A DNA stretch of 64,000 nucleotides from Patescibacteria group bacterium. Lineage in GTDB: Bacteria; Patescibacteriota; Microgenomatia; UBA1400; MFAQ01. This document shows positions 29,999 to 63,726 of the stretch, in pieces. How positions within the stretch are numbered: the stretch's first letter is position 1; the number at the start of each line of letters is the position of its first letter. The position numbers and the translations under genes were made by a program. The notes beneath the pieces are model-generated. The model saw only the letters and a program-made list of their open reading frames with translations, did no database searches and was not told the DNA's origin. The stretch is taken from positions 8,590 to 72,589 of the forward strand of contig CALRDV010000003.1 in NCBI GenBank assembly GCA_943355005.1. Direction: 5' to 3'.

Positions 29999-30024
29999 AG
30001 ATTCCCGCCTTCGCGGGAATGACA
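29999..30024. repeat. REP-like element, subtype 1 variant
   Basis: agattcccgccttcgcgggaatgaca. Confidence 0.45.
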
Positions 30025-30049
30025 AGAATGGATTTGCTATTATTAATGC

Positions 30050-30334
30050 ATGAACAAGTTACAATCCATGACGATTGGAGGAATATTACTAAGTGGTGTA
30101 TTGCTAGGTGGATGTGGTCCGGTTGCTGAGACGACGGAGGTGGTCGTGGAAAGTCCAACTCAAACTTTTACGGGAACAGTGTCCGGCACAGGTCCAAATT
30201 ACGCTATAACTGTAAACGGTAAAATGACGGAAATTACCAGCCGTAAAGTAGATTTGAGTAAGTATGTCGGAAAGACAGCTACAGTAACAGGGGAGTTTAG
30301 TGGAACAACTTTGTATGTAGACGAAGCGAAGTAA
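30050..30334 (+). CDS. small lipoprotein
   Basis: 94 aa with signal peptide and lipobox 'LLGGC'. Followed by the terminator aaaaaacccgcttatggcgggtttttt at 30354..30381. Confidence 0.6.
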   Translation: MNKLQSMTIGGILLSGVLLGGCGPVAETTEVVVESPTQTFTGTVSGTGPNYAITVNGKMTEITSRKVDLSKYVGKTATVTGEFSGTTLYVDEAK

Positions 30335-30387
30335 TTTCTAAGATTACCTAATAAAAAACCCGCTTATGGCGGGTTTTTTGTGATTGA

Positions 30388-31641
30388 TTAAAAGCCGGGG
30401 GATTTGTACAGGACCTCTTTGGTAGTGGCGTTCATCTGGATGATGAGGACGTCCTTGGTGTCACCGGCGGGATCGTAGGCCAGTTGCCAGATAGAGTTGA
30501 GGCCTGACTTGATGTATTGAGCTTTAACCGTAGCCGTACTGCATAGGCCACTGGTACACAGTGGGTTGGCAATCTTGAAGGCTTCGTCCAGATCCATACC
30601 TAGCGTGCTGCCAACCACCATGTCGTTGAGTGAAGGGATATTGTTGTCTGGGGTAACGTAGATGGCTTTGTCTATTACTTCAGGCTCCTTTCCTCCTGCA
30701 ATTAAGACATAGAAATATTTCTTGGTTGTGAGGTCCTGTCTGAAAAAGTATTTGGTAGATGCCAAAATTGGATTTGAAGCGTTTTCGGTTTTGACTAAAA
30801 TTAATTGAGCATTTGGTAGATGATTTATTGCAACCTTTAGAGCTCTTGAGGCATCAGCTAATGGCATTATAGTAGAGGTAGCCGAGAGAGTAGCAATAGA
30901 AGGTGTAGGTGTTAAAAAGATATTCGGAGTTGGAGTAGCACTGGGGGTGGCACTTTCGGTGGCTTCCATTGAAGGAGTAGGAGTAGTGAATTCAATGACG
31001 GAAGAGGTGGGAGTGGGAGTAACGGTAGTGTTTTGACTGTTTAATGTTTGAGTTATCTCACCAAGCTGTTGTTTTAGCTGACTGGATTGTGAAAGAAGAA
31101 AAACAACTCCGGCAATAGAAATGCCGGCGATCAAGAGAAGAACTATGGTAATGAGAGAACCAAAAGATGAACCACCTTTGGGGACTATCGTAGCAGGAAC
31201 TTCTATGGGCGCTGGAGGTATAGCTGGGGCTTGGTACACGGGCTGAGAAACGGGAGTCGGTGCATCGTAAGTGTCAGGAGCGGGGGTGTTGCTGGATGTA
31301 AAAGCAGAGGAGGAATAATCAGGTGCAGCTTCGGCCGCTGAGGTAGGAGTCGGTTCTGTCATTGGGTCCGGAATAGATTCGATTGCCGGTGTGGCAGATA
31401 TCATGGATGGAATTTCATCCGGAGTTTCTTCAAAAGATGGAGCTTGTTTAATGGGTTCGGGATTGGAAAGAGTATCGTTTGGCGTGGAAACAATTGGCTC
31501 ATCGGAAATCTTGTCAGGAATGGGAGCGTTAATATCCTCGAGGATAGATGTTTCGTTAGGAGTTGTGGTTGTATTAGGTGCTGTAGTGTCTGTGCTTGGT
31601 ACTACAGGTGTAGGAAATTGGCCGAGGTCGTCGTTTGGCAT
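30388..31641 (-). CDS. Pro/Thr-rich membrane-anchored protein
   Basis: 417 aa. The N-terminal approx. 140 aa are P/T/S-rich. It has one TM ('LITIVLLLIAGISIAGVVFLL'), a second T-rich tract and a C-terminal globular domain. Confidence 0.5.
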   Translation of the reverse strand: MPNDDLGQFPTPVVPSTDTTAPNTTTTPNETSILEDINAPIPDKISDEPIVSTPNDTLSNPEPIKQAPSFEETPDEIPSMISATPAIESIPDPMTEPTPTSAAEAAPDYSSSAFTSSNTPAPDTYDAPTPVSQPVYQAPAIPPAPIEVPATIVPKGGSSFGSLITIVLLLIAGISIAGVVFLLSQSSQLKQQLGEITQTLNSQNTTVTPTPTSSVIEFTTPTPSMEATESATPSATPTPNIFLTPTPSIATLSATSTIMPLADASRALKVAINHLPNAQLILVKTENASNPILASTKYFFRQDLTTKKYFYVLIAGGKEPEVIDKAIYVTPDNNIPSLNDMVVGSTLGMDLDEAFKIANPLCTSGLCSTATVKAQYIKSGLNSIWQLAYDPAGDTKDVLIIQMNATTKEVLYKSPGF

Positions 31642-31700
31642 GGTGAATTCAGTATGGCAAAAAAGAATGGTGGTGTCAACTTATCTGTACATTTTGAATC

Positions 31701-32057
31701 TTATTCGTTCCAAAATATTTCATCTTCGGAATTAGAAATTCCTATTTTGGGTTTAGTGGCGCCTTCCCAAATATCTTCAAGAGTGTAATTGCAATGGAGA
31801 CGATCTTTGTAGCTCGATTGCTGTGACATTTGTAAGAGGGTTTCTGCATAGAGTTTATCTTCTAAATCCCAATTTTTGTGATCTGGTGCAAGATTGGCAA
31901 TGTAACCCTTTTTCTTACCCACATTTCCGAACCCTGGGGCGTATAGATCAGCACCGGCGGCTAATATGCCATTTGGAGAGCTTACAACTTCCCAGTGTGT
32001 AACTTCTGGTGGTTTAATTCTCCTGGGCTCTCTTTCTCTGTTTCCAAATAATGGCAT
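31701..32057 (-). CDS. hypothetical protein
   Basis: 118-aa ORF with no recognisable motifs. Confidence 0.35.
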   Translation of the reverse strand: MPLFGNREREPRRIKPPEVTHWEVVSSPNGILAAGADLYAPGFGNVGKKKGYIANLAPDHKNWDLEDKLYAETLLQMSQQSSYKDRLHCNYTLEDIWEGATKPKIGISNSEDEIFWNE

Positions 32058-32111
32058 AATGGCAAAATTATACCATTATGGGTTTTTGATGGCTGTTTTT
32101 AGGAGGCTTCT

Positions 32112-33023
32112 CTAGAATTTTACAGATACAATCTTCTCACCAGTTGGATTTTGGTTAGTTGGTTTGTTGAGTCTGGAAATCGTGATTTGATTTTTGCCTA
32201 AAGGTGTAAAGGTCGCTCCTTGGTCCATGGGGTGGAAGATCTCGATATTTGGTGAGTTGTATACAATCTTAGGAACCAGGTCTCTTTCGCTTACGGCAGA
32301 TATCTGATAACTAATATAACCAGGATACAGCCGTCCATTTACCTCGGTTTGCTTTTGAGTGATAATCAAGTAAGTGTCGTTAAACGGGTCGAATATGATT
32401 TTTGTAAGGGTGTAATCGCCGTTTATAATTTTGTCTAAATTTATTTCGGACATAACTGTTTCGTCGCTATTAGATATGTAGTATTTGTTGGCTTGATTAT
32501 CTGCAAATAGGAAGTTGGAGAGGTCTCCAGAGTGGGTGTAGAGGACGAGATTGCTGTTCTTGGGCTGATACTTATAAACATGATCCGTATTCAAGTCGTA
32601 GGAAACGATTTCCATTTTTTTATACTCGTTTAGTCTATAAATACTAAGAATAGAATCACCTATCCAGCCACGGACGTCACTTTCTCGAAAACCCATGGAA
32701 GAGGAACAGTTTACTTCCGAAAAACCCAAGATAGACTCGGTATCTACGGGAGTGTCGTTTTTGAATATGTTCAATAGACATTTATCTGATGTGGCAACCG
32801 ACGTGAGCAAATAGACGTATTTTTTGTCGTGAGAAGTTGACAATTCCGGTGTATATCCAAAGGTATTATCTTCAATTTGTGGGTCTTTGGTGTCTTCAGT
32901 AGATGTTTGAGATTTTATGGGTTCGGCACAAAATGAACAAAGAAGATTAAACTTAACTAAAAGGAGAAATATCAAGCCTGCTGAAACTAAAAATAAGAGG
33001 ATGTTCCTAATTTTTTTTGCCAT
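32112..33023 (-). CDS. hypothetical membrane-anchored protein
   Basis: 303 aa with an N-terminal TM. Confidence 0.45.
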   Translation of the reverse strand: MAKKIRNILLFLVSAGLIFLLLVKFNLLCSFCAEPIKSQTSTEDTKDPQIEDNTFGYTPELSTSHDKKYVYLLTSVATSDKCLLNIFKNDTPVDTESILGFSEVNCSSSMGFRESDVRGWIGDSILSIYRLNEYKKMEIVSYDLNTDHVYKYQPKNSNLVLYTHSGDLSNFLFADNQANKYYISNSDETVMSEINLDKIINGDYTLTKIIFDPFNDTYLIITQKQTEVNGRLYPGYISYQISAVSERDLVPKIVYNSPNIEIFHPMDQGATFTPLGKNQITISRLNKPTNQNPTGEKIVSVKF

Positions 33024-33048
33024 ATTTTGATTATAGACGGCAGTATTG

Positions 33049-33702
33049 TTAGGTGTGAACTAAATAGTTTCTGGAGGATTTGTCGACGATTAGATTCAGT
33101 CCTGCCTCACGAAGGAGGTCTTGCAGGTAGGGTTTGGTGTGCGCAAAGTGGAATCGGGGTTTGTTTTGAAAAGGGATGTAGAGATGTTTAAGGTTTTTTG
33201 TTTTAAGTTTTAAGTTCAGGCTTTGGGTATTAAAGTGGTGTTTGAGTAGTTTAGGTTGCCAGAGGTTCCAGGCGGTGATTAAACATTTTCCTCCAGGTTT
33301 GAGGTGAATTTTAATTTGTTTGAGTACAAAAAGCTGGTCTTTTCTGGTTTCCAAATGATGAATGACGGCTATACAGAATATGTAATCAAATTGGGTGAGG
33401 TGTTTCCAAACAACTGGTTTAGTAATATCGGTTTCCAGAAAACGTGCTTTTGGGTGGGTTTCCACAGCTCTCTCAAGAAGTACTGTAGAGAAATCGATGC
33501 CGGTGTAATTAATTTCTTTGGGAAGCCCCAAGAGAAGGCGACCATTGCCGCAGCCAACGTCTAGGACGCTGGCGTTTTCTTTTACTTCCATTAGAAATGG
33601 TTTCATATCCGGCCAGATATAGCCACGAGAGGCGGAAAAGTTGACTCCTATATCGTTGTAGGTATCCTTAAGAGAATCGCTTTCAGATTTTTGGGCAGAC
33701 AT
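33049..33702 (-). CDS. class I SAM-dependent methyltransferase
   Basis: 217 aa with 'VLDVGCGNGRLLLGL' (motif I). Confidence 0.7.
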   Translation of the reverse strand: MSAQKSESDSLKDTYNDIGVNFSASRGYIWPDMKPFLMEVKENASVLDVGCGNGRLLLGLPKEINYTGIDFSTVLLERAVETHPKARFLETDITKPVVWKHLTQFDYIFCIAVIHHLETRKDQLFVLKQIKIHLKPGGKCLITAWNLWQPKLLKHHFNTQSLNLKLKTKNLKHLYIPFQNKPRFHFAHTKPYLQDLLREAGLNLIVDKSSRNYLVHT

Positions 33703-33801
33703 GGGTTTATTTTACACCCGTCCTATAGCTTGATGTATTGAATGTTTTGAGGTATTATTCCCCCAAGGAAAGAAGTAACTTGAAAAATAATTGGAGGTAG
33801 T

Positions 33802-34407
33802 ATGGCACTGATCAGATGTGACGATTTGAACGCAATAATTTTGGTAATTAGAAAGTCTGTTCATCAAGTCAGCAGTGTTTTGGGAGTTGAGATTGATCCT
33901 GATTCAGTGGATTATATAGCCTCAGCAGCCAAAGCGATGGAAGGGGAAATTTCATTTGAAGGTAATGATTGTGATGCAGATGATGAGCATAAGCAGGCGA
34001 TTAGATTTGTTTTGTCGGCTGTTGATTTTTGTGGTGTACCAATCGTCGATGAATTGATACTGGAAATGCTAGAAAATAAGGACAGATGTTCGTTTACGGG
34101 TTTCTCTGAACAAGATTTGTCAAAAATCGGACGTGAGCAAATAGTTCACAATTCGGCAATGGTAGTAAGTCCTAAGCAATTGAAGAAGGATTACACCTAC
34201 TTTCGCTTTGTAGATGAGAAGCCAGCTTCGTTACTTGTGGTGGTGGAGGTGAAGAACAGGTCTCTTGTTTTTTATGACCCGTTAGATATATTTAAATTAC
34301 GTCAAGAGCTCTCACTTTCTTCAGTTGGAATAATGCCATACCCAAATGGTACGTGGAATGTTTGGAACTGGCTTGAAGAAGCTTATCTGTCAACTGAAAT
34401 TGAATAA
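33802..34407 (+). CDS. hypothetical protein
   Basis: 201 aa, acidic. Followed by a hairpin/T-tract terminator at 34421..34450. Confidence 0.45.
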   Translation: MALIRCDDLNAIILVIRKSVHQVSSVLGVEIDPDSVDYIASAAKAMEGEISFEGNDCDADDEHKQAIRFVLSAVDFCGVPIVDELILEMLENKDRCSFTGFSEQDLSKIGREQIVHNSAMVVSPKQLKKDYTYFRFVDEKPASLLVVVEVKNRSLVFYDPLDIFKLRQELSLSSVGIMPYPNGTWNVWNWLEEAYLSTEIE

Positions 34408-34446
34408 AACATAAATCAAAAGGACCCCTAGTTGGGGCCCTTTTTT

Positions 34447-34866: not shown

Positions 34867-35009
34867 TTTGCCCTCCTTATTTTGTTTAGATTTTAGGCTT
34901 ACGCAATTGTTGGTATTTTAACACAAATATGCCTAATTGTCAAGTTATAGGGTGATATTTAGGCACAAAAAGCCCCGCCGAGAGGCGGGGTGGTTAGGTG
35001 AAACAGAGG

Positions 35010-35783: not shown

Positions 35784-37346
35784 GTGAAAATCGAAGAATT
35801 AGTACGAAGAGACGCGGAAAAAGTCACTCCTGAGAATTTGGAGGAGTATCGCCGCGCCTGGGCAAAGGTAATTGGCCGGATGCCGAAGAACTCAGAAATT
35901 TGGCCCTTTATTGACGATGATGAGATAAAAGAGCTTTACAAGACCCGCAGTGTACGGACTGAGTCCGGGGTAGCTCCGTTTGCGGTCATGATGAAACCTC
36001 ATTATTGTCCCGGCAACTGTGTTTACTGTCCACTGGAAGAAGGAATGCCGAAATCTTATTTATCGGATGAGCCGGCGGCTCAGAGAGCCAAGAAATTGAA
36101 GTTTGATCCGTATTTGCAAGTAGAGATGAGAATTAAACAGATGGAAGAGACTGGGCACATCACTGACAAAATAGATTTGATAGTGATTGGGGGAACTTTT
36201 TCTGCTTATCCGGATGATTACAAGCTGGAATTTTTTAAGGGTATGTTTGATGGGGTAAATGGATTTGTTTCCGATACTTTGGAAGAAGCCCAAAAATATA
36301 ATGAGACGGGGAAAAGAAGAATCGTGGGAATTTCGGTAGAAACAAGACCTGACTGGGTGACAGAACAGGAGATAATTTTATGGCGAAAAATGGGTGTGAC
36401 CAAGGTACAGCTCGGAGTCCAAGCATTCGATGAAGAAATTTTGAAGAAAATTAATAGGGGACATAGTCTGGATGAAGTGGCCGAAGCGACCAGGATGTGT
36501 AGAAATGCGGGGGTGAAGATTTGCTATCACTTCATGCCAAACTTGCCGGGGAGCACACCGGAAAAAGATATTGAGATGGCGAAAATAATGTTTAATGATC
36601 CTAGATTTGAGCCTGATTATCTCAAAGTTTATCCGGCGATGGTAATTCCGACGACTGAGCTGCATAAGATGTGGGAAAGAGGCGAGTATCAGAGCTATGC
36701 CGATGAGGATTTGAAAAGAGTATTGAAAGAAGTAAAAAGATTGACCCCGCGATGGTGCCGGATAGATAGATTGGTCCGTGATATCAGTAAACAGTGGGTG
36801 AGTTCGGGAACCCTGAGAACCAACTTAAGACAAATTCTACAGGCCGAATTAAAGAAAGAGGGTAAAAAATGTCTGTGTATCCGGTGCAGAGAAGTCCGAG
36901 CGGGTGTCTATGATGCTGAAGTAAAACTACTGATAGATGAGAGAGAAACTTTGGGGGGACAAGAGCTTTTCTTGTCTTTTGAAAGTGAAGACAATTTATT
37001 TTCGATGTTGCGACTGCGACTTCCGGAGAAAGATGAAAAGATGCTATTTAAGGAGCTTGAGGGGGCAGCGATAGTGCGGGAAGTACATACGTATGGTCAA
37101 GTAAAAGGAATTACTGCTATGGATTCCGGGTCGGAGCCCGGAATGACAGACCTTCAAGGAGACTCCTTGAAGGGGGAAGAAAGTCAACATAGGGGACTAG
37201 GGAAGAGACTTTTGGTAAAGGCTGAAGAGATCGCCAAAGACAGAGGCTATAAAAAAATGGCGGTAATATCGGCAATAGGCACGAGAGAGTACTACAAGAA
37301 GCTGGGATACGAGCTGGAGGGGGAGTATGTGGTGAAGATGTTGTAG
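35784..37346 (+). CDS. Elp3-family radical SAM plus GNAT protein (putative tRNA uridine-34 modification enzyme)
   Basis: 520 aa with the radical-SAM cysteine triad 'CPGNCVYCP' and a C-terminal GNAT 'RGLGKRLLVKAEEIAKDRGYKKMAVISAIGTREYYKKLGY'. Confidence 0.7.
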   Translation: MKIEELVRRDAEKVTPENLEEYRRAWAKVIGRMPKNSEIWPFIDDDEIKELYKTRSVRTESGVAPFAVMMKPHYCPGNCVYCPLEEGMPKSYLSDEPAAQRAKKLKFDPYLQVEMRIKQMEETGHITDKIDLIVIGGTFSAYPDDYKLEFFKGMFDGVNGFVSDTLEEAQKYNETGKRRIVGISVETRPDWVTEQEIILWRKMGVTKVQLGVQAFDEEILKKINRGHSLDEVAEATRMCRNAGVKICYHFMPNLPGSTPEKDIEMAKIMFNDPRFEPDYLKVYPAMVIPTTELHKMWERGEYQSYADEDLKRVLKEVKRLTPRWCRIDRLVRDISKQWVSSGTLRTNLRQILQAELKKEGKKCLCIRCREVRAGVYDAEVKLLIDERETLGGQELFLSFESEDNLFSMLRLRLPEKDEKMLFKELEGAAIVREVHTYGQVKGITAMDSGSEPGMTDLQGDSLKGEESQHRGLGKRLLVKAEEIAKDRGYKKMAVISAIGTREYYKKLGYELEGEYVVKML

Positions 37347-39434: not shown

Positions 39435-39441
39435 AATTAGA

Positions 39442-42337: not shown

Positions 42338-43228
42338 TTAGATTTTGTGGCCGGAGAGGAATTGTTTCCAGGTAGTTGGGTTCTTGCCGGGGATTTGAAC
42401 GGTGTCGATTATTAACTTATCGGAAACGAGAGAAGTTTTCAAAATTTTTATTTGTATAGCCCCGCCTTGGCGGGGGACAATTGTCGTCCAGGCGCCCGGT
42501 TCCGGATTGAGGGAGCGGATGAGAGCATGAACTTCTTTGGCATCAACTCCCTTAAGGGCGTTAAAAGTTTTCACGGAGGGGACCAGGGCAGAAGCGTGAG
42601 AAATTGTTTTGTGGCTTGGAGTAAAAGTGGCGAGGGATTCGTCTTGAGGCATAGAAGTGTAATTTTGAGCACAGATTTCGGGTAATTTATCTGTCAGAAG
42701 TTCTTCTGCAGCCTGAGTAAGTTTTGTGGTCAATTTTAGGACATCATCATTCATGTCGATAGTGACTTTTGCTTGAGAGATTATATTACCGTGGTCCAGT
42801 TTTTCATCCATTTCCATCAGTGTGACTCCGGTTTCTATGTCCATGTTTTTGATGGCTTCGGAGATACAAAGAGCGCCTCGATATTTGGGAAGTAAAGAAA
42901 AATGAATATTGAAAGTGCCTAGTGCGGGGGATTCGAGCCAAGTCTTGGGAACTATTTTGCCAAAAGAGACGAATAAGAAGATATCGGGTTTGAGGAGTCT
43001 GAGGTGAGCCAGATTGGCTTCATCCAGCTTATTGGGTTTGTAAATTGGTAAGTCGTAGTTACCGGCCATTTCAGAGACAGGGGAAGGAGTTAGGACTTGT
43101 TTGCGGCCTTGAGGTTTGTCCGGGGTGGTGACTACGCCAACCACATTTACCAATTTGGATTGTATGATTTTTTCCAGAATTTGGGCTGAGAAGTCGGGTG
43201 AGCCGAAGTAAATAAGATTTTTGAGCAT
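42338..43228 (-). CDS. fmt: methionyl-tRNA formyltransferase
   Basis: 296 aa with 'LIYFGSPDFSAQILEKII...VVGVVTTPDKPQGRK'. Confidence 0.8.
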   Translation of the reverse strand: MLKNLIYFGSPDFSAQILEKIIQSKLVNVVGVVTTPDKPQGRKQVLTPSPVSEMAGNYDLPIYKPNKLDEANLAHLRLLKPDIFLFVSFGKIVPKTWLESPALGTFNIHFSLLPKYRGALCISEAIKNMDIETGVTLMEMDEKLDHGNIISQAKVTIDMNDDVLKLTTKLTQAAEELLTDKLPEICAQNYTSMPQDESLATFTPSHKTISHASALVPSVKTFNALKGVDAKEVHALIRSLNPEPGAWTTIVPRQGGAIQIKILKTSLVSDKLIIDTVQIPGKNPTTWKQFLSGHKI

Positions 43229-43248: not shown

Positions 43249-43275
43249 GGATTCCCGATCAGGTCGGGAATGACA
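43249..43275. repeat. REP/MITE-like palindromic element, subtype 1 (GGATTCCCGA-TCAGG-TCGGGAATGACA)
   Basis: 8-bp inverted repeat ATTCCCGA/TCGGGAAT in the fmt-def intergenic region. Other copies: 29999..30024 (variant), 45129..45156 (inside a CDS), 47780..47806, 50523..50548 and 63619..63675 (expanded loop). Confidence 0.6.
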
Positions 43276-44318: not shown

Positions 44319-46346
44319 TTATTTGGTGATCTGATTTAGGCGGTCTTTGGCGGCTTCGTAGTCTGGCTTAAGTTCGATGGCTTTTTGGAAGGCAAGCTTG
44401 GCCGCTTCCAGTGTAGATTTTGCGTCGGTGCTGGCTCCGAGGACTTTGGACTCCGACATGGATTGGGCTAAGCTAGCGTAAAGAATACCAATGTTGTAAT
44501 AATTGGTCGCTTCGGTGGGAGAGAGCTCGGTAATTTTTAGTAGCGTGTTAATTGCGTCCAAATTATATTTTGGATCTAAAGTTGCCAGAGATAGTTCGGT
44601 ACGGGCTTTGGTCTTTAGTAGATTTAAATTGTATTTATTCATCTCTACCGCTTTCGCAATATTTGTAACTGAATCACTCATGTATTGATTAAGATAGTCT
44701 TGGCCTCTTTTCTTTAAATCGGCGGAAGTGGAGGCAGTAAAGTCTTTCATCTGAGGTGCAATAATTTGGACGGCAACTAGCGCTTGGACATTTCCGAGCT
44801 GGGCATAATAAATCGGCTCGCGTGGATTTAAATCGATTGCCTTGAGATCTTCCGAGAGATTGTTCCTGCCGGCAGTGTAAGCCAGATCGGCGACCCACAG
44901 CCGTCGTACTCCAAGAAGTAGCCAAATGGCTAAGATAATGATAAGAGTTTTGCCAACCGTCTCGTTTAGATTATTTTTTTGAGAAATAATTTTGGCTTGT
45001 TCGGTCGCGGAAATATAAATGGCGGGGAAGAGGAAAAAGAAAATGGCAACGTTTACGACAGAGAAGCCGAAGTAGTTGGTGATGAGAATACTGATGAAGC
45101 CGAGGAGGAGAGGGAGGGATAGGGAACTGGATTCCGGATCAGGTCCGGAATGACGAGATATAAAAATACAAATAATTGAAACAATGAGGAAAAGATAGGC
45201 TGCGAGACCGACGAAGCCGGTATTGGCCAAGAAATTTAAATATTCGTTGTGAGCTTTGTTGTAAAGAAAATCAGACTCGGAAGTGAGATTGTGAGCTGCG
45301 GGCCTTACCCAGTAATAAGTGTAGCCAAAAGTTTCGACTCCGGTACCAAAGAGGGGATACTTCTTACCTAGTTCGATGGCGCCTGTCCAGACGACGCGAC
45401 GGATAGTCATGGAGTCTGAGCCACCAACGCGGGTTTTGTTTTCTTCGTTGATGATGGATTCGGTATTGGAATAGAGAGGATTAATCTTGTTTAAAGAGGA
45501 AAGAGTTCGAGAAACCGAACTGCCTTTAAAAAATATTACTAAAGCAAGAAGTATTCCTAAGCCATAAAGAATTTTGGGTTGCTTTTTTTGAAGAGAAATT
45601 ATGATGACAAAAGCGGTTAGGATTACGGCTGTGGCGCCAATGCCGGATTGAGAGCGGGTAAAGAGAATAGAAATCAGAAAGAGTCCGGACAAAAAGACGT
45701 GGGCAAAGCGGGAATTAATATTTTTGGTGTTTACCGCGGTAAAAAGGGAAATGGGAAGTAGAGCAATTAAATATGCAGAGAGCCAGTTTGGCTGACCCAA
45801 AGTGGAGAAGACGCGATTCTGGACATCTTGCACCCAGACATTTTTATCAATACCCATTTTTTCCAAGACAGCGTAACCGGCTGTAATCGCCGCGGTAGTT
45901 AGGATGGCGTAGAAAAGATTTTTTATGGCTTTAGCTTGTCCCAAAAAATGGGTGACGAGAGCGTAAAAAAGAATGACGTAGCAAATGGTGGACATCAAGC
46001 CACCATGGAAGCGGGAGTAATAGCCCCAAAGACTTGTGTGCCGGTCGATGGAAATATAGGTGGAAATGATTTGTGATGTGAGGAAAACTAAAATGGGGAG
46101 GTCCAGAGGTGTTTTGGCAATCTCAAATTTCTTGATTTCGAAGGACCGCCAAAGCCAACCGGCAGAAATAATAATCGTCATGGCATAGACGAACATCATC
46201 TTGTTGAATTCGAAAACTTCGGAAGTGAAAGGCCAGAGTAAAAGAGGGGTGATGAAGAAAAGGGTGTAGAAACAATAGTGAATAAAAGTGGCCGGTTTTT
46301 GGAAAATTATTTTTGGAGGAAATATCTTTTTCGACGCAGATGACAT
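44319..46346 (-). CDS. O-antigen ligase-like (Wzy_C) polytopic membrane protein with C-terminal TPR repeats
   Basis: 675 aa, many TMs, with 'HNEYLNFLANTGFVGL' (Wzy_C-like) and a TPR-like C-terminus. It contains an in-frame REP-like element at 45129..45156. Confidence 0.6.
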   Translation of the reverse strand: MSSASKKIFPPKIIFQKPATFIHYCFYTLFFITPLLLWPFTSEVFEFNKMMFVYAMTIIISAGWLWRSFEIKKFEIAKTPLDLPILVFLTSQIISTYISIDRHTSLWGYYSRFHGGLMSTICYVILFYALVTHFLGQAKAIKNLFYAILTTAAITAGYAVLEKMGIDKNVWVQDVQNRVFSTLGQPNWLSAYLIALLPISLFTAVNTKNINSRFAHVFLSGLFLISILFTRSQSGIGATAVILTAFVIIISLQKKQPKILYGLGILLALVIFFKGSSVSRTLSSLNKINPLYSNTESIINEENKTRVGGSDSMTIRRVVWTGAIELGKKYPLFGTGVETFGYTYYWVRPAAHNLTSESDFLYNKAHNEYLNFLANTGFVGLAAYLFLIVSIICIFISRHSGPDPESSSLSLPLLLGFISILITNYFGFSVVNVAIFFFLFPAIYISATEQAKIISQKNNLNETVGKTLIIILAIWLLLGVRRLWVADLAYTAGRNNLSEDLKAIDLNPREPIYYAQLGNVQALVAVQIIAPQMKDFTASTSADLKKRGQDYLNQYMSDSVTNIAKAVEMNKYNLNLLKTKARTELSLATLDPKYNLDAINTLLKITELSPTEATNYYNIGILYASLAQSMSESKVLGASTDAKSTLEAAKLAFQKAIELKPDYEAAKDRLNQITK

Positions 46347-46481
46347 GGGTATAGTTTAGCAGAGAAAAGCAAAAGTCCTCCGAAAATATCGGAGGACTTT
46401 AATGGTTGAGATCGCCCAGAGAGTAGCCAAAGCCGTGTCGGAGGTGCACCCCCAACCAACTCCACTGTTTCTCTGGGCTTG

Positions 46482-46555
46482 TGCCCTTGGCGCGACTCGA
46501 ACACGCGACCCTTTGCTCCGCAAGCAAATGCTCTAATCCACTGAGCTACAAGGGC
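46482..46555 (-). tRNA. tRNA-Arg (anticodon GCG as read), CCA not encoded
   Basis: Minus strand reads GCCCTTG-TA-GCTC-AGTGGATTA-GAGC-A-TTTGC-TTGCGGA-GCAAA-GGGTC-GCGTG-TTCGAGT-CGCGC-CAAGGGC-A. There is an upstream TTGACT-N17-TATATT promoter. Confidence 0.7.
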
Positions 46556-47514: not shown

Positions 47515-47779
47515 TTTGGGGTCCTTTCTGAACCACTTATAGAAAAACTTGAGTCTCGTCCGAATGGAAGAGTACGCTTGGTCCCGCTTATGGCGGGACG
47601 CTTGGAAAAAACAATTTCAGAGAGCGAGATCTACTTACTTTTTACTCTCGTAAGTTGGAGCATTATAGCACCACTGAGGCTATTTGTCAAGTTATAGGCC
47701 TTTAAGTAGTCTCCTTGAAGGCTGATATTGAGGCTGGGTGGTGTGAGTCCCGCCTAGGCGGGAGACGTTGCTGTTGCCT

Positions 47780-47806
47780 GGATTCCGGATCAAGTCCGGA
47801 ATGACA
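47780..47806. repeat. REP-like element, subtype 1
   Basis: ggattccggatcaagtccggaatgaca. Confidence 0.6.
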
Positions 47807-47814: not shown

Positions 47815-47852
47815 GGATTGCCACGGTTCGGAGTACCGAAACTCGCAATGAC
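47815..47852. repeat. REP-like element, subtype 2 (GGATTGCCAC...TCGCAATGAC)
   Basis: ggattgccacggttcggagtaccgaaactcgcaatgac, a nested hairpin. It sits 8 nt after the subtype-1 copy. Other copies: 52156..52194 and 63688..63726 (variant inner stem). Confidence 0.55.
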
Positions 47853-50522: not shown

Positions 50523-50548
50523 GATTCCCGATCAGGTCGGGAATGACA
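50523..50548. repeat. REP-like element, subtype 1
   Basis: gattcccgatcaggtcgggaatgaca, between mreD and mrdA. Confidence 0.6.
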
Positions 50549-52088: not shown

Positions 52089-52155
52089 GTTCGTCATCAC
52101 GAGGAGCGAAAGCGACGTGGTGATCCAGGCTAATGAAAATTCAAAAAGTGGTCCT

Positions 52156-52194
52156 GGATTGCCACAGCTCGGAATACCGAGATTCGCAATGACA
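52156..52194. repeat. REP-like element, subtype 2
   Basis: ggattgccacagctcggaataccgagattcgcaatgaca, just upstream of promoter P1. Confidence 0.55.
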
Positions 52195-52203
52195 AAGAGG
52201 GTC

Positions 52204-52232
52204 TTGACAAATCTCGTGTTATGGGGTATTAT
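52204..52232 (+). promoter_or_regulatory. sigma70-like promoter P1 (TTGACA-N17-TATTAT)
   Basis: The -35 TTGACA is at 52204-52209, the 17-nt spacer ends in TGGGG, and the -10 TATTAT is at 52227-52232. Confidence 0.6.
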
Positions 52233-52239
52233 ATACGTA

Positions 52240-52780
52240 TTCTAGAAATAGAAGTTTACTTTTAAATCTAATGGTTGGCCGCTATGAAATGGAAGTTAAG
52301 GCTTTTGTTTCGTAACGGCCAAAGCCGATACCTGTAATCTAGCAAAGGACCGCCTAGGTTAAACCAGCGCCTTATGATTACAGGGTTCTCGTATAAGTCC
52401 TTCCCCCCTGCAGCGTAGCCTCCGCCGATGTAGGAGCTGATTCCGCATCATTGGTTGACGCATTTCAGGGTATGGAAGCACAATAGGGCGTGATGGCCCT
52501 GTACGAGCGATACGAACCGCCCTTAGCAGGGCATGGCGCCGAGCTTAATGGTTCGGACGTATTGTGAGAGTGTCTCGTCGGAGGTTCACCTGCTATGGTG
52601 ATACCACGCTATCCGGCTGCCAGAGAGCTCTCAGACCAAGATCCTGCCAAGAAGAGGCGCATAAAAACTTCTTGGCGGGATCGTCCGCAAAATGATGTGG
52701 GCCGGCGGACCGCGCCGGCCCCCATCAATCTTTCTTGAAAATAGTAGCCGTCATAATTGTGACGGCTATTTGCTTTTTTG
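52240..52780 (+). ncRNA. candidate structured ncRNA 1 (approx. 540 nt, GC-rich, class unknown)
   Basis: Bounded by P1 and an intrinsic terminator (hairpin 52746..52768 plus T6). It has no long ORF and is GC-rich relative to its surroundings. Confidence 0.5.
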
Positions 52781-52808
52781 AGGCTTGAGGCTGATAGACC
52801 CATAACAC

Positions 52809-52837
52809 TTGACAAAAGGGGAAAGTGGTGGTAGAAT
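52809..52837 (+). promoter_or_regulatory. sigma70-like promoter P2 (TTGACA-N17-TAGAAT)
   Basis: -35 at 52809-52814 and -10 at 52832-52837. Confidence 0.55.
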
Positions 52838-52843
52838 AACTGT

Positions 52844-53400
52844 ATTCTCGAAAGAGATTGTTCCTTAATTCATAAATGAATTTGGACTGCGAAGTTGGTC
52901 ACCAAGCTGGAATTCTAAATATTTGGATTTCGAGCTTGGTGGCCGACAACGCAACGGCGCCATGACGTCCCTTGATGTGAGTACTCCATTTTTTTATCAT
53001 TCAGGAGACTCTATTCTAAACGTATGTATCGTTGTGCACAAAGTTGCGGGGATTCACTGCCTGCTTTGTGTAGTCGCGTTGCTTTCCCTAAGTGCCCCTC
53101 GCAAAGGCAACCTTTCTCAAGACGAGAAGGTGGAAACCGGAGGCAGTCCGGCAGAGAGATTGGGAGATGGTTGCTCAACCGTCTTCACTCTCTGATGGTG
53201 ACTTCCTGAATGAGCCCCTCTTCACATTGGACCCCGGGGTCTATTTGTGTCGAAGCGCGGAAGTCATCCAGTCCTCAGGAGCTGAAAGCAGTGATATGGC
53301 CTTTTTCGGTCTATGCACAAATGCTAGCTCCTGGGGACAAATTCATTTATCTTATTTCATCTCTGAGACCGGCCATGCGCCGGTCTCATTTGCGTTTTTG
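52844..53400 (+). ncRNA. candidate structured ncRNA 2 (approx. 555 nt, GC-rich, class unknown; paralogous 5' region to ncRNA 1)
   Basis: Bounded by P2 and the terminator gagaccggc-catgc-gccggtctc plus T-run (53365..53399). Its 5' motif 'GTATTCTCGAAAGAGA' matches 'GTATTCTAGAAATAGA' of ncRNA 1. It contains only short mutually overlapping ORFs. Confidence 0.5.
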
Positions 53401-53510
53401 GGACTTGTAGTACAATTCCCGTTTGTGTTTGCCCGAGAAAGTTGGGCGCTTAACGTGTATATTTTAAAGAAGGCATGCGGGCGGGTCACGCCCCGCCCCT
53501 ACAAAAAATT

Positions 53511-58610: not shown

Positions 58611-58646
58611 CCCTAGACAGGTCGATAAATTTAGAATAAGTTAGAG

Positions 58647-58874: not shown

Positions 58875-59445
58875 ATTTATTGTTTTGTACGGGTCCAATA
58901 ATCTCGGAAAATCGAAGCAGTTGGAACTTTTGGAACAGACCTATCTGGAAGCTGGATTACCGTATACTAGAATAAAATATCCCATCTACGATTCGCCGAC
59001 AGGTGAAATCATTAATAGAGTTTTGAGGCCGGATGAAAATGGAAATAAGCTGGAAATGTCCGATGACGATTTACAGTGCCTGTATGCCGAAAACAGGAGG
59101 CAGTATGAACTGGCTTTGTTGGCTTTACTTGAGCAAGGCGACGTAATCGCAGAGGATTATGTGGGTACAGGTTTGGCTTGGGGACTGACTAAGGGTGTGG
59201 ATAGGGGGCTCTTGGATGAATTTAATAGGGGACTACTAAGACCTGATTTTGAGATACTGTTGGATGGACAAAGGTTTGGTGGAAGTATCGAAAAAGGCCA
59301 CCGACACGAAGCGGCCGGTCAAGAGGTTTGGGAGAGAAGTCGGGAGGTTCACTTGGGTTTGGCTCGGGAAATGGGGTGGAGGATAGTAAACGCCAATGAA
59401 AGTGTGGAAAGGGTGCATGAGAGCATTATGGAGATTTTGAGCTAG
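58867..59445 (+). CDS. P-loop nucleoside-monophosphate kinase, thymidylate-kinase-like
   Basis: 192 aa with P-loop 'LYGSNNLGKS' and 'IAEDYVGTGLAWG', which resembles the Tmk DRY/substrate-binding region. Confidence 0.45.
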   Translation: MGRFIVLYGSNNLGKSKQLELLEQTYLEAGLPYTRIKYPIYDSPTGEIINRVLRPDENGNKLEMSDDDLQCLYAENRRQYELALLALLEQGDVIAEDYVGTGLAWGLTKGVDRGLLDEFNRGLLRPDFEILLDGQRFGGSIEKGHRHEAAGQEVWERSREVHLGLAREMGWRIVNANESVERVHESIMEILS

Positions 59446-59461
59446 AGAATTACCGGGGGTC

Positions 59462-59490
59462 TTGACAAATTGACTGTTATGGGGTATACT
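59462..59490 (+). promoter_or_regulatory. sigma70-like promoter P3 (TTGACA-N17-TATACT), near-duplicate of P1
   Basis: cTTGACAAATtgacTGTTATGGGGTATAct versus P1 cTTGACAAATctcgTGTTATGGGGTATtat. Confidence 0.55.
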
Positions 59491-59591
59491 TCCCACTATT
59501 GTGCTGTGCCTGATGCATAGCTAATCCTAGAAGTTGCGGCTCGGCCGTGACTCAGGACCTTGATAACTGAATGAAAGGAAAGGAGCGAGAC

Positions 59592-61052
59592 ATGGAAAAA
59601 TTTATCCTAGGGGCAGAAATTTTCTTATTTGCCTCGATTGTATTGTTCGCTGTTAAGGCGATACTGGATGTTACCAACTCGGACTACGAAGTGACCTGGA
59701 ATGAATACATTGTCGTCACGATAGTTGTTGGTCTGGTTCTCTCTTTTGGAGGGGTTCAGATCGGTTGGGCGCAAGCTCGTAATTCACAGAAAAGCTTTAA
59801 TGAGATTTGGGGTGGCTGGGAGAATGGAGCATGGCCTGTTGATTTTGGCTGTACCAAGGACGGTCCTTGTATACACGAGTATCCTTGTGATCACTACATT
59901 ACATATACGACTGAGTGTAATGGGTATGACAAAGATGGTAAATGCACAGGTACTCACCAAGAACCACATGATAATTGGCATGCTTGCCCGGTTTATACCA
60001 AGGAAACCAGCTATCTGATGTCGACTAACCTCGATCAAGAATTTGAGTTCGGTAATCACTGTGTCGATCTAAATCCTGTTCGTTGGGGAATTGGATCTTC
60101 CGATTATGAAGCTGGACAAACTGCCGTCAACGCATGTGTGGGCATTCCGCCTGCCTGGGAAGCGGTGAACTATCGTGTAAACGTGATTCATCAGCCTGGT
60201 CCTGCTTTCAAAAAGAATACATACGAAAACCTCGTAATCGCAGCGGATGAGGAAATGTTCAAGAAGTATGATGGATATGTTCAGGAATTTTTGGCGGCCG
60301 GGATTCTTCCTATGGTGGTCAGTCCTGAAGCAATTCACGATTACTATTTGACTGAGCCGATATATGCTGTTGGGTGGGCGCCTCAAAACCCTGCACAATG
60401 GCAGGAATACATCCGCTATCTCGATGGTGCAGTTGGTGAAGAACTGCATGGTACTACCCATGTCGTAATCATCCAAAGCCCAATTGCTGATAGGAATCCT
60501 CAGCGCTATATTACTACTCTCAAAGCTTATTGGCAGGATCCTAAGTTCTGCGGTGACAACTGTTTTCCCAAAAATGGAATTTTGATCGTTGTTGGGACGA
60601 CGGATGGATCAACAGTGGCTTGGGCGCGAGCTGAGACAGGTATGCCTGTAGGCAACCGAGACCTGATCAACCATGCTGAGATCGATCTAGTAGGTGTTGC
60701 CTTAACACCTGATGCTTTGATCGGACGAATCATCCCTGAGCCTTATGTCCGTGACGATGGCAAGAATAAAGTGCGGGCATTACACCCGAATCCAGGTGCA
60801 ATCGAAACACTAGTCTGGGGCTTAAAATTCCCTGAGACCAAGTTCGTGCGTATCTCGATGAAGGCGAAGGATGCGGATGATGTGGGAACTGGGTTTAATT
60901 GGTTGGAAGAAATGATTCGTCCAACAAAAACTCAGCAAAGATGGATCGTATTTTGGTGTTCTTTGTTGTCACTTATCCCGATCGGGATTGTGGCGGCTAA
61001 TGGCGAACGACCACGCCGGCGCAGTCGCTCCTCATCGAGCTACTTCCGGTAG
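59592..61052 (+). CDS. Cys-rich membrane protein, hypothetical
   Basis: The track ORF 59571..61052 was trimmed to 'MEKFILGAEIF'. It has 2 N-terminal TMs, a Cys-rich ectodomain ('CIHEYPCDHY...CNGYDKDGKC'), a C-terminal TM and an Arg/Ser tail. Confidence 0.45.
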   Translation: MEKFILGAEIFLFASIVLFAVKAILDVTNSDYEVTWNEYIVVTIVVGLVLSFGGVQIGWAQARNSQKSFNEIWGGWENGAWPVDFGCTKDGPCIHEYPCDHYITYTTECNGYDKDGKCTGTHQEPHDNWHACPVYTKETSYLMSTNLDQEFEFGNHCVDLNPVRWGIGSSDYEAGQTAVNACVGIPPAWEAVNYRVNVIHQPGPAFKKNTYENLVIAADEEMFKKYDGYVQEFLAAGILPMVVSPEAIHDYYLTEPIYAVGWAPQNPAQWQEYIRYLDGAVGEELHGTTHVVIIQSPIADRNPQRYITTLKAYWQDPKFCGDNCFPKNGILIVVGTTDGSTVAWARAETGMPVGNRDLINHAEIDLVGVALTPDALIGRIIPEPYVRDDGKNKVRALHPNPGAIETLVWGLKFPETKFVRISMKAKDADDVGTGFNWLEEMIRPTKTQQRWIVFWCSLLSLIPIGIVAANGERPRRRSRSSSSYFR

Positions 61053-61087
61053 TCGTTTATAAAACTATTGTTCAAGGAGAAATAAAA

Positions 61088-61753
61088 ATGGATCCGATTC
61101 AAATTTTGAAGAAATACGGTTGGTTGGTGGTTGTGGGCGTGATTTTGCTCAGCATCATCAGCGCTGTGAGTAATACCAAGACGCAAAACCGGTTCTACGA
61201 GAACCAGGCGAATGCGATCTATGCATCGTGCCAGACCGAATTGTCGACCTACATGGTCGCCTTCAACGACAAGTTCAGCATTATGAACTTCAATGCCGCG
61301 ACGGTTCATTCCGTCATCACGGACGCTGTTACCGGGCGTTATGATCAGCTTGGCAACGATGGTCTGCCGACAGGAAGTATCGACGCTGGACTGCTGGTGA
61401 ATGCCATTATGGTCAGTGAGGCTTACCCTGACACCAGCGCTTTGACTGCGTTCGCGCAAGAATTTTCAATTTGGGATGCTTCCCGGCGCGAGGATTTTGG
61501 GAATTGCCAAAAATCACTTATCAGCAATTTCCAGTCCTGGGACACCTTCAACAGTGGTCTGGTTCAGGAACCGTTGTCTGCTGCGATGGGATTCCCCGAT
61601 GAAAAACTGACGACTGGTGGAAAGAATCCGCTTTTTGGTCAGGCTGCCCGCGAGAAGATGCTCGAATTGGTCCTGTACAAGGGCGCGCGCGATGCGTATG
61701 AGTCCGGTGATCTTTTGGACAACCCAATCCCGACCCCGATGATTCAGCCTTAA
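61088..61753 (+). CDS. membrane-anchored hypothetical protein
   Basis: 221 aa with an N-terminal TM. Followed by a terminator at 61785..61810. Confidence 0.45.
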   Translation: MDPIQILKKYGWLVVVGVILLSIISAVSNTKTQNRFYENQANAIYASCQTELSTYMVAFNDKFSIMNFNAATVHSVITDAVTGRYDQLGNDGLPTGSIDAGLLVNAIMVSEAYPDTSALTAFAQEFSIWDASRREDFGNCQKSLISNFQSWDTFNSGLVQEPLSAAMGFPDEKLTTGGKNPLFGQAAREKMLELVLYKGARDAYESGDLLDNPIPTPMIQP

Positions 61754-61980
61754 TCATCGATCCATTCAGTATCATAATATTAGTCTCCCCAGTACGGGGA
61801 GACTTTTTTGTGGCTTAAGTGGTAATTGCAATGGGTAATAACCATGCCTCTGGGGGGTCCTGTAGTGCTCCTAAATCCTGATATTAACGTAATATCCTAT
61901 ATGAATGGCTCCAGGATAGTCACGTACTGCCTTTAGCCAATAAAAAGCCTCTCCCGTTGGGAGAGGCTTTCTTTGTTTCT

Positions 61981-62775
61981 TCATCGAAGATAGAATGTCA
62001 AGAATTTCAAACCCGCCACGGCGCTATTGTGAGCGGCCGCGTCGTAGGTGGATTCGACTTTAACGCCATCAGCATCGTTACTAATCGAGCTAAAGACGAT
62101 GAATGGAACGTTGTTGTGTTTTTTGGCGATAACGGCGAGGTTATAAGACTCCATGTCTACAATACTCGCACCAGTTGCTTTGAACACATCGGGGCCGTTA
62201 GTCACGTACTCTTTGGCAGTGACGCCTGAGCTGGTGACTATCGCCAGTTGGTTGTCTTTTACGATTTGGATGAGGTTGTTTTCGATTTTAACTGAGTTTC
62301 CTGTGTGTTGTTCCGACCAGAATTCAGGCACAACCACACTAAGTATTTCGAGGTTTGAGTCTAAACCACCTGAAATTCCGACGTAGATAACAATCTGTAC
62401 ATCGAGGAAGTTGTTCAGGACATAATCCAGATCCTTTTCGGCACCCGGTCCAAAACCAGTCAAGTCGAAATAATTGAACTCAACACCGTAATACGATGCT
62501 CTGTAGACAGTGACATCGCCTGAGAGGCAGGTGGCAATCGGTGTGGCTGAATCTGAAATGGCTGCTAGTTCACGGCCAAGAGCTGTTACTACGAGGGGCA
62601 TTGATTCAAGGTAGAACTCTGAAGTGCAAGCTGTGATTTCCTGTGCAGGAGGCGCTTTAGGAGCGCAACCGGTAAAGAGAATCAAAAAAGCAATGATCAA
62701 GATAATCGTTTTGTGATTCATGTTAATGTCCATTTCTGAGGCATAGCCTCCTGATGTGAGATACGAGAATCCCAT
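61981..62775 (-). CDS. lipoprotein with a PNP_UDP_1 (nucleoside phosphorylase/MTA-SAH nucleosidase-like) domain
   Basis: 'IVDMESYNLAVIAKKHNNVPFIVFSSISNDADG' resembles the MtnN/PNP family. A likely internal start is 'MNHKTIILIIAFLILFTGC' (lipobox). Confidence 0.5.
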   Translation of the reverse strand: MGFSYLTSGGYASEMDINMNHKTIILIIAFLILFTGCAPKAPPAQEITACTSEFYLESMPLVVTALGRELAAISDSATPIATCLSGDVTVYRASYYGVEFNYFDLTGFGPGAEKDLDYVLNNFLDVQIVIYVGISGGLDSNLEILSVVVPEFWSEQHTGNSVKIENNLIQIVKDNQLAIVTSSGVTAKEYVTNGPDVFKATGASIVDMESYNLAVIAKKHNNVPFIVFSSISNDADGVKVESTYDAAAHNSAVAGLKFLTFYLR

Positions 62776-62845
62776 AGTATATCATAATTGAGGCTGTTTG
62801 TCAAGAAAATATGCGTAAATTGTGGGGTTTGGGGTAGAATAAAGC

Positions 62846-63607
62846 ATGGCAAAAGCAATATTTGATGGTAAAAAAGAGGCAGAACGAATGGCTGTATTTC
62901 TCGAGGAGTCGGAAAGACTCCTGGGGAAAAGTCTGGTGATATTTCAGTGCGATGGGCGTACGGATGAGAGTGCGTATGTGCGGCTCAAGCACGAGATGGG
63001 GGAGAGACTTGGGGTGATGGTGTCAGTCATATATGCTCAGGATAAGGAAGAGCTGAAGGAAATGCTTGCGTCTGCAAACGAGGATGATACAGTGGATGGT
63101 ATTTTGATACAGTTGCCGGTAGTTGGAACGGATAAGGCTGAATTGGAGAGTATTGTGGCTTCAATTAAGCCAAGTAAAGATGTTGATGGGTTAAACCCCA
63201 AAAGCAGATTTGTACCCGCAGTAATCAGAGCTGTGGAAAGGGTCGTGGAGATATTTAAGATTAGTGAAGATGATCGGGTGGCTGTGGTGGGTGCGAAAGG
63301 AGCGATTGGAAGCCGGCTTATGACTAGACTCCACGATCTGAATATTGAGCCTGAAGGGTTTGATAAAGGGGATGATCTTAAGAATCTTAAGGACTTTGAT
63401 GTAGTTATAAGCTGTACCGGTACGGTTGGGGTGATTACCGGAGAAATGGTAATGGATGGCTTCGTGGGCATAGACCTAGGCTATCCTAAGGGGGATATTT
63501 CGCCTGAGGCGGTCGAAAAGGCGTCTTTGATCACCCCTGTGCCTGGTGGCGTGGGCCCCATGACTGTAGTGGCTCTCTTTGAGAATCTCGCGGATACGGA
63601 GTATTAA
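62846..63607 (+). CDS. folD: bifunctional methylenetetrahydrofolate dehydrogenase/cyclohydrolase
   Basis: 253 aa with 'PVPGGVGPMTVVAL' and a Rossmann 'VAVVGAKGAIGSRL'. Confidence 0.75.
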   Translation: MAKAIFDGKKEAERMAVFLEESERLLGKSLVIFQCDGRTDESAYVRLKHEMGERLGVMVSVIYAQDKEELKEMLASANEDDTVDGILIQLPVVGTDKAELESIVASIKPSKDVDGLNPKSRFVPAVIRAVERVVEIFKISEDDRVAVVGAKGAIGSRLMTRLHDLNIEPEGFDKGDDLKNLKDFDVVISCTGTVGVITGEMVMDGFVGIDLGYPKGDISPEAVEKASLITPVPGGVGPMTVVALFENLADTEY

Positions 63608-63618
63608 AAAGTAAGACT

Positions 63619-63726
63619 GGATTCCGGGTCAAGCTCGCCTCGCTGAAGCCGAGTCGAAGCGGGCCCGGAATGACAGGTGGACAGGTTGATTGCCACGGCC
63701 GACCTAAAGTCGAGCCTCGCAATGAC
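63619..63726. repeat. compound REP-like locus: subtype 1 with a 30-nt loop insertion followed by subtype 2
   Basis: ggattccgggtcaag[ctcgcctcgctgaagccgagtcgaagcgg]gcccggaatgaca, followed by gattgccacggccgacctaaagtcgagcctcgcaatgac. Confidence 0.5.

Follow-up and report, generated by a model that had tools for sequence, protein, structure and literature searches.

We examined a family of short hairpin-forming repeats in a 64,000-nucleotide stretch of a genome assigned to the Patescibacteria (assembly GCA_943355005.1, contig CALRDV010000003.1, positions 8,590 to 72,589 of the forward strand), hereafter called the window. These elements are very probably Ssn-related motifs (SRMs) of the kind represented by the Neisseria Transformation Sequence (NTS) and its dRS3 repeat, carried in this case by a member of the candidate phyla radiation (CPR); beyond this identity, we infer an active partner nuclease in this host, a mode of spread and a physiological role. 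Homologs of the Elp3 protein encoded in the window, at 83-85% identity, are named Candidatus Collierbacteria, and the host is therefore a Collierbacteria-like member of the Microgenomates within the CPR. The SRM/NTS class itself has been known since 2025, and dRS3 for much longer; the CPR host is the addition made here, a host group that goes unmentioned in the main text of the paper describing the class (Chenal et al., Nat Commun 2025, PMC11893778). Thus, a CPR genome can now be placed within the recently described Ssn/SRM system.

The link to these motifs came from a full-text search with the core sequence. The NTS is CGTCATTCCCGCGMAVGCGGGAATCYRG and includes the long-known dRS3 repeat (Chenal et al., Nat Commun 2025, PMC11893778). 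SRMs are hairpins bordering the genes of small GIY-YIG proteins (cd10448, SsnA); SsnA binds its hairpin only as single-stranded DNA (ssDNA) and only on the GTCAT... strand, cutting a few nucleotides 5', and is inactive on the reverse strand, on double-stranded DNA and on RNA (PMC11893778). This binding and cutting of one strand of ssDNA has been established in vitro for four Ssn/SRM pairs, the C right after the palindrome being most critical for binding and the three preceding nucleotides for cleavage (PMC11893778). We found that the elements called subtype 1 in an initial annotation of the window are the reverse complement of the Neisseria NTS. The window elements and the NTS/dRS3 and SRM hairpins have in common the core GTCATTCC-stem-loop-stem-GGAATCC, the orienting GTC and C flanks, the size of the hairpin, a clustered and mainly intergenic placement and, in other genomes including those of CPR bacteria, a bracketing of ssn that resembles an insertion sequence (IS). 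The GTC 5' and the C 3' of the palindrome are kept in 11 of 11 window copies, across all three stem types.

The window holds 11 credible hairpin copies and two short variants (Table 1), with at least three stem types (ATTCC, ATTGC and ATCAC) that are arranged as singles, tandems and convergent doublets. The termini pattern GGATTN..AATGAC has seven matches in the window where 1.85 are expected, and a sequence-agnostic pattern, consisting of GTC, a perfect stem of at least 7 bp, a loop and C, has nine matches against 1.07 in dinucleotide shuffles. All nine copies listed in the initial annotation are present where it had placed them, as are its two tandem loci of subtype 1 with subtype 2 and its loop insertion in the copy at 63619 (63620 in Table 1), where the stem arms are separated by 35 nt and not by 5; the list was incomplete, however, as the copies at 37121-37148 and 52093-52125 had been missed. 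The copy between def and fmt (43250) and that upstream of mrdA (50523) are identical in sequence, and copy 47781..47805 was found too in an independent contig (L001).

As ssDNA, the copies with an ATTCC stem form a stem of 8 bp with a loop of 4-6 nt. For the six short ones the DNA fold energies lie between -7.6 and -8.9 kcal/mol, and for the long-loop copy 63620 the value is -16.2 kcal/mol, with z-scores for the seven folds of -2.9 to -4.9; copy 30000..30023, which among the window copies is nearest to the Neisseria NTS, folds at -8.9 kcal/mol (z = -4.9). Copies with an ATTGC stem form a two-tier hairpin, with an outer stem of 5 bp, an internal loop and an inner stem of 5 bp, and the 109-nt doublet comprising copies 52093 and 52157 folds at -19.6 kcal/mol (z = -3.4). 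The copies have the form of SRMs in being inverted repeats of 20-50 nt that make a hairpin as ssDNA. Their stems are preserved by compensatory changes, as the initial annotation had proposed, with CCCGA/TCGGG against CCGGA/TCCGG in subtype 1 and further examples in the inner stems of subtype 2. No Rfam family covers the hairpins, at gathering or at permissive thresholds.

Table 1. Hairpin copies in the window, possible short variants and the two genes that host in-frame copies
Feature	Coordinates	Strand	Context and remarks
SRM, ATTCC stem (subtype 1), GTCATTCCCGCGAAGGCGGGAATC	30000..30023	-	Intergenic, downstream of tRNA-Tyr
SRM, ATTCC stem	37122..37147	-	In frame within the Elp3 coding sequence, peptide DSGSEPGMT; absent from the initial annotation
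SRM, ATTCC stem	43250..43274	-	def-fmt spacer of 58 nt, both genes on -
SRM, ATTCC stem	45130..45154	-	In frame within the O-antigen-ligase-like open reading frame 44319-46346, peptide RHSGPDPES
SRM, ATTCC stem	47781..47805	-	Upstream of mreB, tandem with copy 47816..47852
SRM-like, ATTGC stem (subtype 2), GTCATTGCGAG..CGTGGCAATC	47816..47852	-	Two-tier hairpin, upstream of mreB
SRM, ATTCC stem	50523..50547	-	Between a 188-aa open reading frame and mrdA
SRM-like, ATCAC stem (ATCAC/GTGAT)	52093..52125	+	Left arm of convergent doublet; absent from the initial annotation
SRM-like, ATTGC stem	52157..52193	-	Right arm of doublet, 3' of mrdA
SRM, ATTCC stem, 35-nt structured loop insert	63620..63674	-	3' of folD-like gene
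SRM-like, ATTGC stem	63688..63726	-	Tandem with 63620..63674, followed by a terminator-like hairpin
Possible short variant, GTC-TCCCGCC-TA-GGCGGGA-C	47747..47766	-	Perfect 7-bp stem; membership uncertain
Possible short variant, GTC-CCCCGCC-AA-GGCGGGG-C	42459..42478	-	Inside fmt; could be chance (~1 expected in shuffles)
Elp3 gene	35784..37346	+	Hosts an in-frame SRM in a variable loop
O-antigen-ligase-like gene (Wzy_C + TPR), 675 aa	44319..46346	-	In-frame SRM between transmembrane helices

We scanned one genome per species with the pattern GGATTCCSGN{5,9}CSGGAATGACA and analysed 140 instances. At least 120 genome stretches carry the same hairpin, against an estimated ~22 chance matches in the genome collection, and it is thus not confined to the window. 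The element hardly varies across metagenome-assembled genomes (MAGs) of dozens of phyla, with labels such as Proteobacteria, Bacteroidota, Chloroflexota, Planctomycetota, Nitrospirota, Cyanobacteria, Spirochaetes, several CPR phyla, Omnitrophota and Nanoarchaeota. The covariation that the initial annotation had suggested looking for is present in these instances: 138 of the 140 have complementary bases at stem position 6, where 100 would be expected to, and 135 have a Watson-Crick innermost pair (84 expected), with four pair types in use. A T precedes GGATTCC in 130. Chance matches can clearly not account for the 140 instances. Furthermore, at least 120 predicted viral contigs (IMG/VR, L210-L329) carry the hairpin, often several times each; viruses are therefore plausible vehicles of its spread across phyla. 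In the MAG labelled Nanoarchaeota, an exact SRM (L039, 1510-1535) is followed 25 nt downstream by a related hairpin (GTCATTCCTGCGAAAGCAGGAA..); either the family reaches DPANN archaea or this contig was mis-binned.

Starting from the ssn genes of three hairpin-bearing loci (L017, L064 and L083), we fetched 80 metagenomic loci with ssn relatives, and the hairpin is present at 70 of them. At 42 of 68 ssn loci the gene has a forward copy just upstream and an inverted one that overlaps its stop codon or follows closely behind it, an SRM-ssn-SRM architecture that is IS-like. Because the hairpins correspond to the inverted flanks of such a unit, the objection that they might be fragments of a single known IS terminal repeat holds in part. 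The commonest variant of the window, GTCATTCCCGACCTGATCGGGAATCC, which is identical to copy 43250, flanks ssn in L156, and long-loop variants like copy 63620 flank ssn in L173. The closest homologs of the L156 Ssn that carry names are from Patescibacteria, Woesebacteria, Pacebacteria and Wildermuthbacteria, and ssn lies amid clusters of SRMs both in a closed Woesebacteria genome (L208, CP065002.1) and in a Patescibacteria contig (L209). This indicates that the Ssn/SRM system exists in CPR bacteria. Woesebacteria and Pacebacteria, along with Collierbacteria, are members of the Microgenomates. Hairpins with an ATTGC stem are likewise found near ssn genes, often paired in convergent doublets.

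The 3' end of ssn overlaps the inverted SRM in L156, L208 (10285-10310) and L209 (10285-10324), and the hairpin overlapping the stop codon encodes the last residues of the nuclease (..DWIPDQV or ..DWIPDRSRG..). Tandem partial duplications, each made of half a hairpin and ~10 nt, were seen beside ssn in L129, L134, L148, L194 and L208, and also in L038 and L051; for example, GTCATTCCCGC-N10 is repeated two to three times ahead of a complete SRM, and arrays of the other half (..CCGGAATGACAG..) were found too. Such duplications may have arisen by cleavage and repair, or by slippage.

Comparison with relatives of the host revealed that the hairpins behave as mobile insertions, able to sit in frame within essential or conserved genes. 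The insert in Elp3 is absent from the 79 other aligned homologs (the 79 closest); the basal state is a short loop, YGQVAQIDINDGIKTQH, in a protein of 504 aa, and the window protein alone has ...ITAMDSGSEPGMT... at that position. Inserts of other relatives in the same loop include the peptides SLRGAE..AISESGI..EIRND, which in L204 are encoded by two ATTGC-stem hairpins that form a convergent doublet within the coding sequence. In the loop of the ligase-like protein, the site is empty in L123, holds the 9-residue SRM insert in the window and is occupied at the same place by a doublet in L122. Between def and fmt, L122 has a spacer of 1 nt and L206 one of 5 nt, both without the hairpin, whereas the spacer in the window, with the hairpin, measures 58 nt. 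A near-identical relative of copy 47816 (one mismatch) lies at a different locus in L123 and L205. These filled and empty sites, together with identical or near-identical copies at different loci, indicate recent insertion or replacement events. A doublet architecture like that of 52093/52157 occurs also in L122, L204 and other CPR loci.

The initial annotation had placed the copies at operon boundaries. This applies to most of them, which are intergenic, but not to the copy at 45129, which is in frame inside the 675-aa ligase-like open reading frame (ORF). In all, two of the 11 window copies are in frame inside genes, whereas 2% of the NTS of N. meningitidis lie inside genes (PMC11893778). 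The placement of such motifs in frame within genes as mobile insertions does not figure in the main text of that paper. A likeness in description is found in the Rickettsia palindromic elements (RPEs), which are also in-frame palindromic inserts in protein genes; RPEs are ~100-150 bp in length, occur in Rickettsia only and add short peptide segments at tolerated surface positions, whereas the window elements span 24-55 bp and are pan-phylum.

The Elp3 loop seems to collect hairpin-forming inserts of several kinds. Immediately after the SRM, at 37151-37173, we found a second, unrelated perfect palindrome (CCTTCAAGGAG-A-CTCCTTGAAGG), also in frame, that encodes the peptide DLQGDSLKG; this peptide occurs without the SRM in homologs P0010, P0025, P0027 and P0031. 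In L122 the loop carries yet another palindrome, CTGCAGGGCC-TGG-CCCTGCAG.

Several results weigh against the assignment of the window elements to an SRM system, and in particular to an active one. The published degenerate SRM pattern, HGTCWYN(0-2)YYVSBRHN(0-5)WNVSBRGN(0-2)RNCYNB, which was built by hand from 29 genomes (PMC11893778), matches only one of the 11 copies (that at 30000). A profile of 68 Ssn sequences detected no ssn gene or remnant, either across the 64 kb of the window or across ~116 kb of syntenic sequence in relatives, and the nearby cd10448-type ssn that is characteristic of SRMs is thus lacking from the window and these syntenic loci. Among the matches listed, ssn lies within the fetched stretch at three of 120 genome loci (L017, L064 and L083), and an Ssn-type protein is encoded at five of 120 viral loci. 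In the sampled Ssn clade, an ATTGC-stem hairpin was not seen as the immediate flank of ssn. No target-site duplication was seen when filled and empty sites were compared, and Ssn is not known to move or copy the hairpins.

The commonest variant of the window fails the published pattern and yet directly flanks ssn in L156; most window copies fall outside it in having another inner stem and a 5-nt loop, and the window adds the ATTGC and ATCAC stem types with their two-tier hairpin. As for the NTS in the strict sense, defined as a match to CGTCATTCCCGCGMAVGCGGGAATCYRG with at most one mismatch (PMC11893778), the best copy (29997-30024, on the - strand) has two mismatches and all others have more than three.

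The lack of ssn is also what would be expected if the hairpins were fossils, that is, SRM-type repeats in a lineage that lost, or never possessed, a working Ssn, being inert remains or arrivals by recombination with foreign or viral DNA that now serve no function. In all, ~180 kb of this lineage are without ssn, most hairpin-bearing loci elsewhere have no ssn nearby (again among the matches listed), and the hairpins are common on viral contigs, which could have delivered them. However, copies 43250 and 50523 are identical, copy 47816 is 1 nt away from copies at other loci in relatives, and sites are polymorphic among relatives whose Elp3 identity is 83-85%, all of which points to recent activity; moreover, compensatory changes keep the stems. 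Genes for Ssn are also easily missed in MAGs: most close Ssn homologs were found on contigs 0.4-3 kb long, which suggests that assemblies break at these repeats, so that metagenome assemblies fall apart at ssn/SRM clusters and MAGs contain too few of them. The lack of ssn from a MAG fragment is therefore weak evidence. We consider a fossil origin improbable on this evidence, and retain an SRM system with a nuclease partner as the more probable reading.

The initial annotation had described the elements as REP/MITE-like, after repetitive extragenic palindromic (REP) sequences and miniature inverted-repeat transposable elements (MITEs). It was right in that they are dispersed, structure-constrained and mobile, as seen in the covariation and in the presence/absence differences between relatives, but the family and the enzyme are others (Ssn, pan-phylum). 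A MITE origin does not fit, as there is no target-site duplication and the element is a single hairpin of 24-55 nt, although its sequence agrees with that of the hairpins flanking ssn, in inverted orientation, in the IS-like SRM-ssn-SRM unit. There is a resemblance to REP sequences, to bacterial interspersed mosaic elements (BIMEs) and to REPINs (REP doublets forming hairpins). In both cases short dispersed hairpins with an asymmetric conserved flank occur as singles and inverted doublets, and in both a partner enzyme acts on the ssDNA hairpin and is encoded by a gene flanked by the repeats. Under a REP/BIME reading, the hairpins would be mobilised by a REP-associated tyrosine transposase (RAYT) whose gene lies outside the window. 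The layout of singles and inverted doublets fits this proposal, and there is a weak Y1_Tnp-like ORF 4 kb from ssn in the Woesebacteria genome (L208, 13935-14600 on the - strand of CP065002.1, 221 aa, weak match to PF01797, with no SRM detected beside it). Nevertheless, no Y1 transposase-like ORF was found in the window by phmmer with two Y1 queries, in agreement with the initial annotation, which had noted no cognate transposase there; the head of the hairpin is GTC and not GTAG; its sequence is common to many phyla, whereas REP sequences are species-specific; and the gene that the hairpin consistently brackets is ssn, encoding a GIY-YIG nuclease and not an HUH/Y1 transposase. Mobilisation by a RAYT is accordingly very unlikely.

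We next consider orientation, by which we mean the strand that Ssn would cleave. This is the - strand for all solitary copies (nine copies at seven loci) and for both short variants, the only copy on the + strand being the left arm of the doublet (52093..52125), and solitary copies in the syntenic loci of six relatives show the same uniform orientation. Together with the absence of ssn, this uniformity sets the window apart from known SRM loci. Orientation is independent of gene direction, as hairpins also occur in - strand contexts (def, fmt, the ligase-like gene and L204 at 4123), and this favours an asymmetry of DNA over one of RNA. This bears on the idea that the hairpins work at the RNA level, as terminators, mRNA stabilisers or processing sites at operon boundaries. 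Most copies do lie between genes, the hairpins are stable and a terminator-like hairpin follows copy 63688. However, no U-tract directly follows the hairpins, their orientation is fixed on the DNA strand so that mRNAs carry either strand, two copies are within coding sequences, the conserved unpaired GTC and C flanks fit recognition of ssDNA by a protein, and SsnA does not bind the RNA form (PMC11893778). We regard a function of this kind as having little probability.

GC skew is positive on the + strand across the whole window. An artefact of coding was ruled out, as the skew at third codon positions is positive for genes of both strands (+0.29 for + genes and +0.41 for - genes). On the usual interpretation of skew, the cleavable strand is the leading-strand template and the non-cleavable strand the lagging-strand template. 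The orientation of the hairpins would fit avoidance of self-cleavage at replication forks, or an insertion bias, and by analogy a replication-strand-biased orientation could be the signature of one-strand recognition of an ssDNA hairpin with cleavage nearby. As a general property of SRMs the bias was rejected: among the 140 cross-phylum instances, orientation is 64:76 relative to local GC skew and 65:74 relative to the coding strand, and at other CPR loci it is mixed. We do not take the strand bias in the window as a property of the family.

IS110-family elements target REP-like hairpins, and the window hairpins might likewise be integration targets of a site-specific recombinase (IS110/Piv-type), in the manner of dRS3 for the filamentous prophages of Neisseria; dRS3 has been cited as a phage recombinase target (PMC11893778). 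No such recombinase or inserted element adjoins any of the 11 copies, however, and the proposal would explain the use of the hairpin but not its origin or spread; it is compatible with an SRM identity. As a replacement for that identity it is the least probable of the alternatives considered.

If the elements are SRMs, Ssn-family nucleases would bind the hairpins and cut a few nucleotides upstream, on one strand and only when it is single-stranded. The window hairpins would be, or would until recently have been, substrates for an Ssn of CPR type whose gene lies in another part of the genome; they would propagate through a single-stranded DNA intermediate, and would have spread through the genome as small mobile insertions, mostly intergenic with two in tolerant protein loops. 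Any consequence for the cell would be expected to act on DNA and not on RNA. By analogy with Neisseria, site-specific cutting of incoming or exposed single strands might modulate recombination in naturally competent bacteria. Competence for DNA uptake has been reported for Patescibacteria, whose predicted horizontally transferred genes include GIY-YIG genes (PMC12455944); a Neisseria-like role in handling incoming single strands is therefore conceivable in this host.

A bolder reading joins these elements: SRMs would actively transpose by means of the GIY-YIG nuclease, in CPR bacteria with insertion specific to one strand of the fork and with repeated hits or replacements at the same protein loops. 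The uniform orientation would then be a trace either of insertions into the lagging-strand template or of selection acting to prevent self-cleavage at forks. Ssn is not known to rejoin DNA, and we put this reading forward tentatively, as one that is probably not correct. If true, GIY-YIG-driven transposition would be a third enzymatic route to the spread of REP-like repeats, alongside Y1/RAYT, and in-frame loop insertions would remodel proteins such as Elp3 and a cell-envelope ligase. If the bias in strand and the 'hot spots' in loops proved to be genome-wide, they would be the first clues from in vivo data to the mode of SRM spread and to whether Ssn threatens the replication intermediates of its own host. 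At a practical level, annotators of CPR genomes should beware of the spurious peptide motifs that the hairpins create (DSGSEPGMT, RHSGPDPES and ..RND..) and of the breaks in MAG assemblies that they probably cause.

The window has a GC content of ~42%, and many of its proteins match NCBIfam models only weakly. Non-coding DNA amounts to 1.4 kb in positions 1-29998 and to 5.4 kb in the remainder, and the lack of copies in the former region is largely due to its small intergenic space; we therefore rejected the clustering of copies in the second half as a biological signal, as it is mostly accounted for by the intergenic space available. Positions 1-29998 hold ~33 packed genes, nearly all on the - strand, though + is the leading strand by the replication-type skew; transcription would run head-on to replication over a block of 30 kb. 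The initial annotation also named an 'ncRNA' after mrdA, for which Rfam gave no support: the ~1.3 kb between the doublet and topA (52194-53474) have no Rfam match and no convincing ORF, the two short ones present being without a Pfam match. A megablast search of the mreB region against plasmids gave no match. In two relatives a ParE-type toxin gene, not found in the window, lies immediately upstream of Elp3 (L122, 9165-9643; L205, 3445-3948), accompanied in L205 by a PhdYeFM-type antitoxin gene. Finally, ARAGORN called a tRNA-Arg with anticodon GCG at 46481-46555 (- strand); for the codon box that this anticodon reads, bacteria usually carry ACG.

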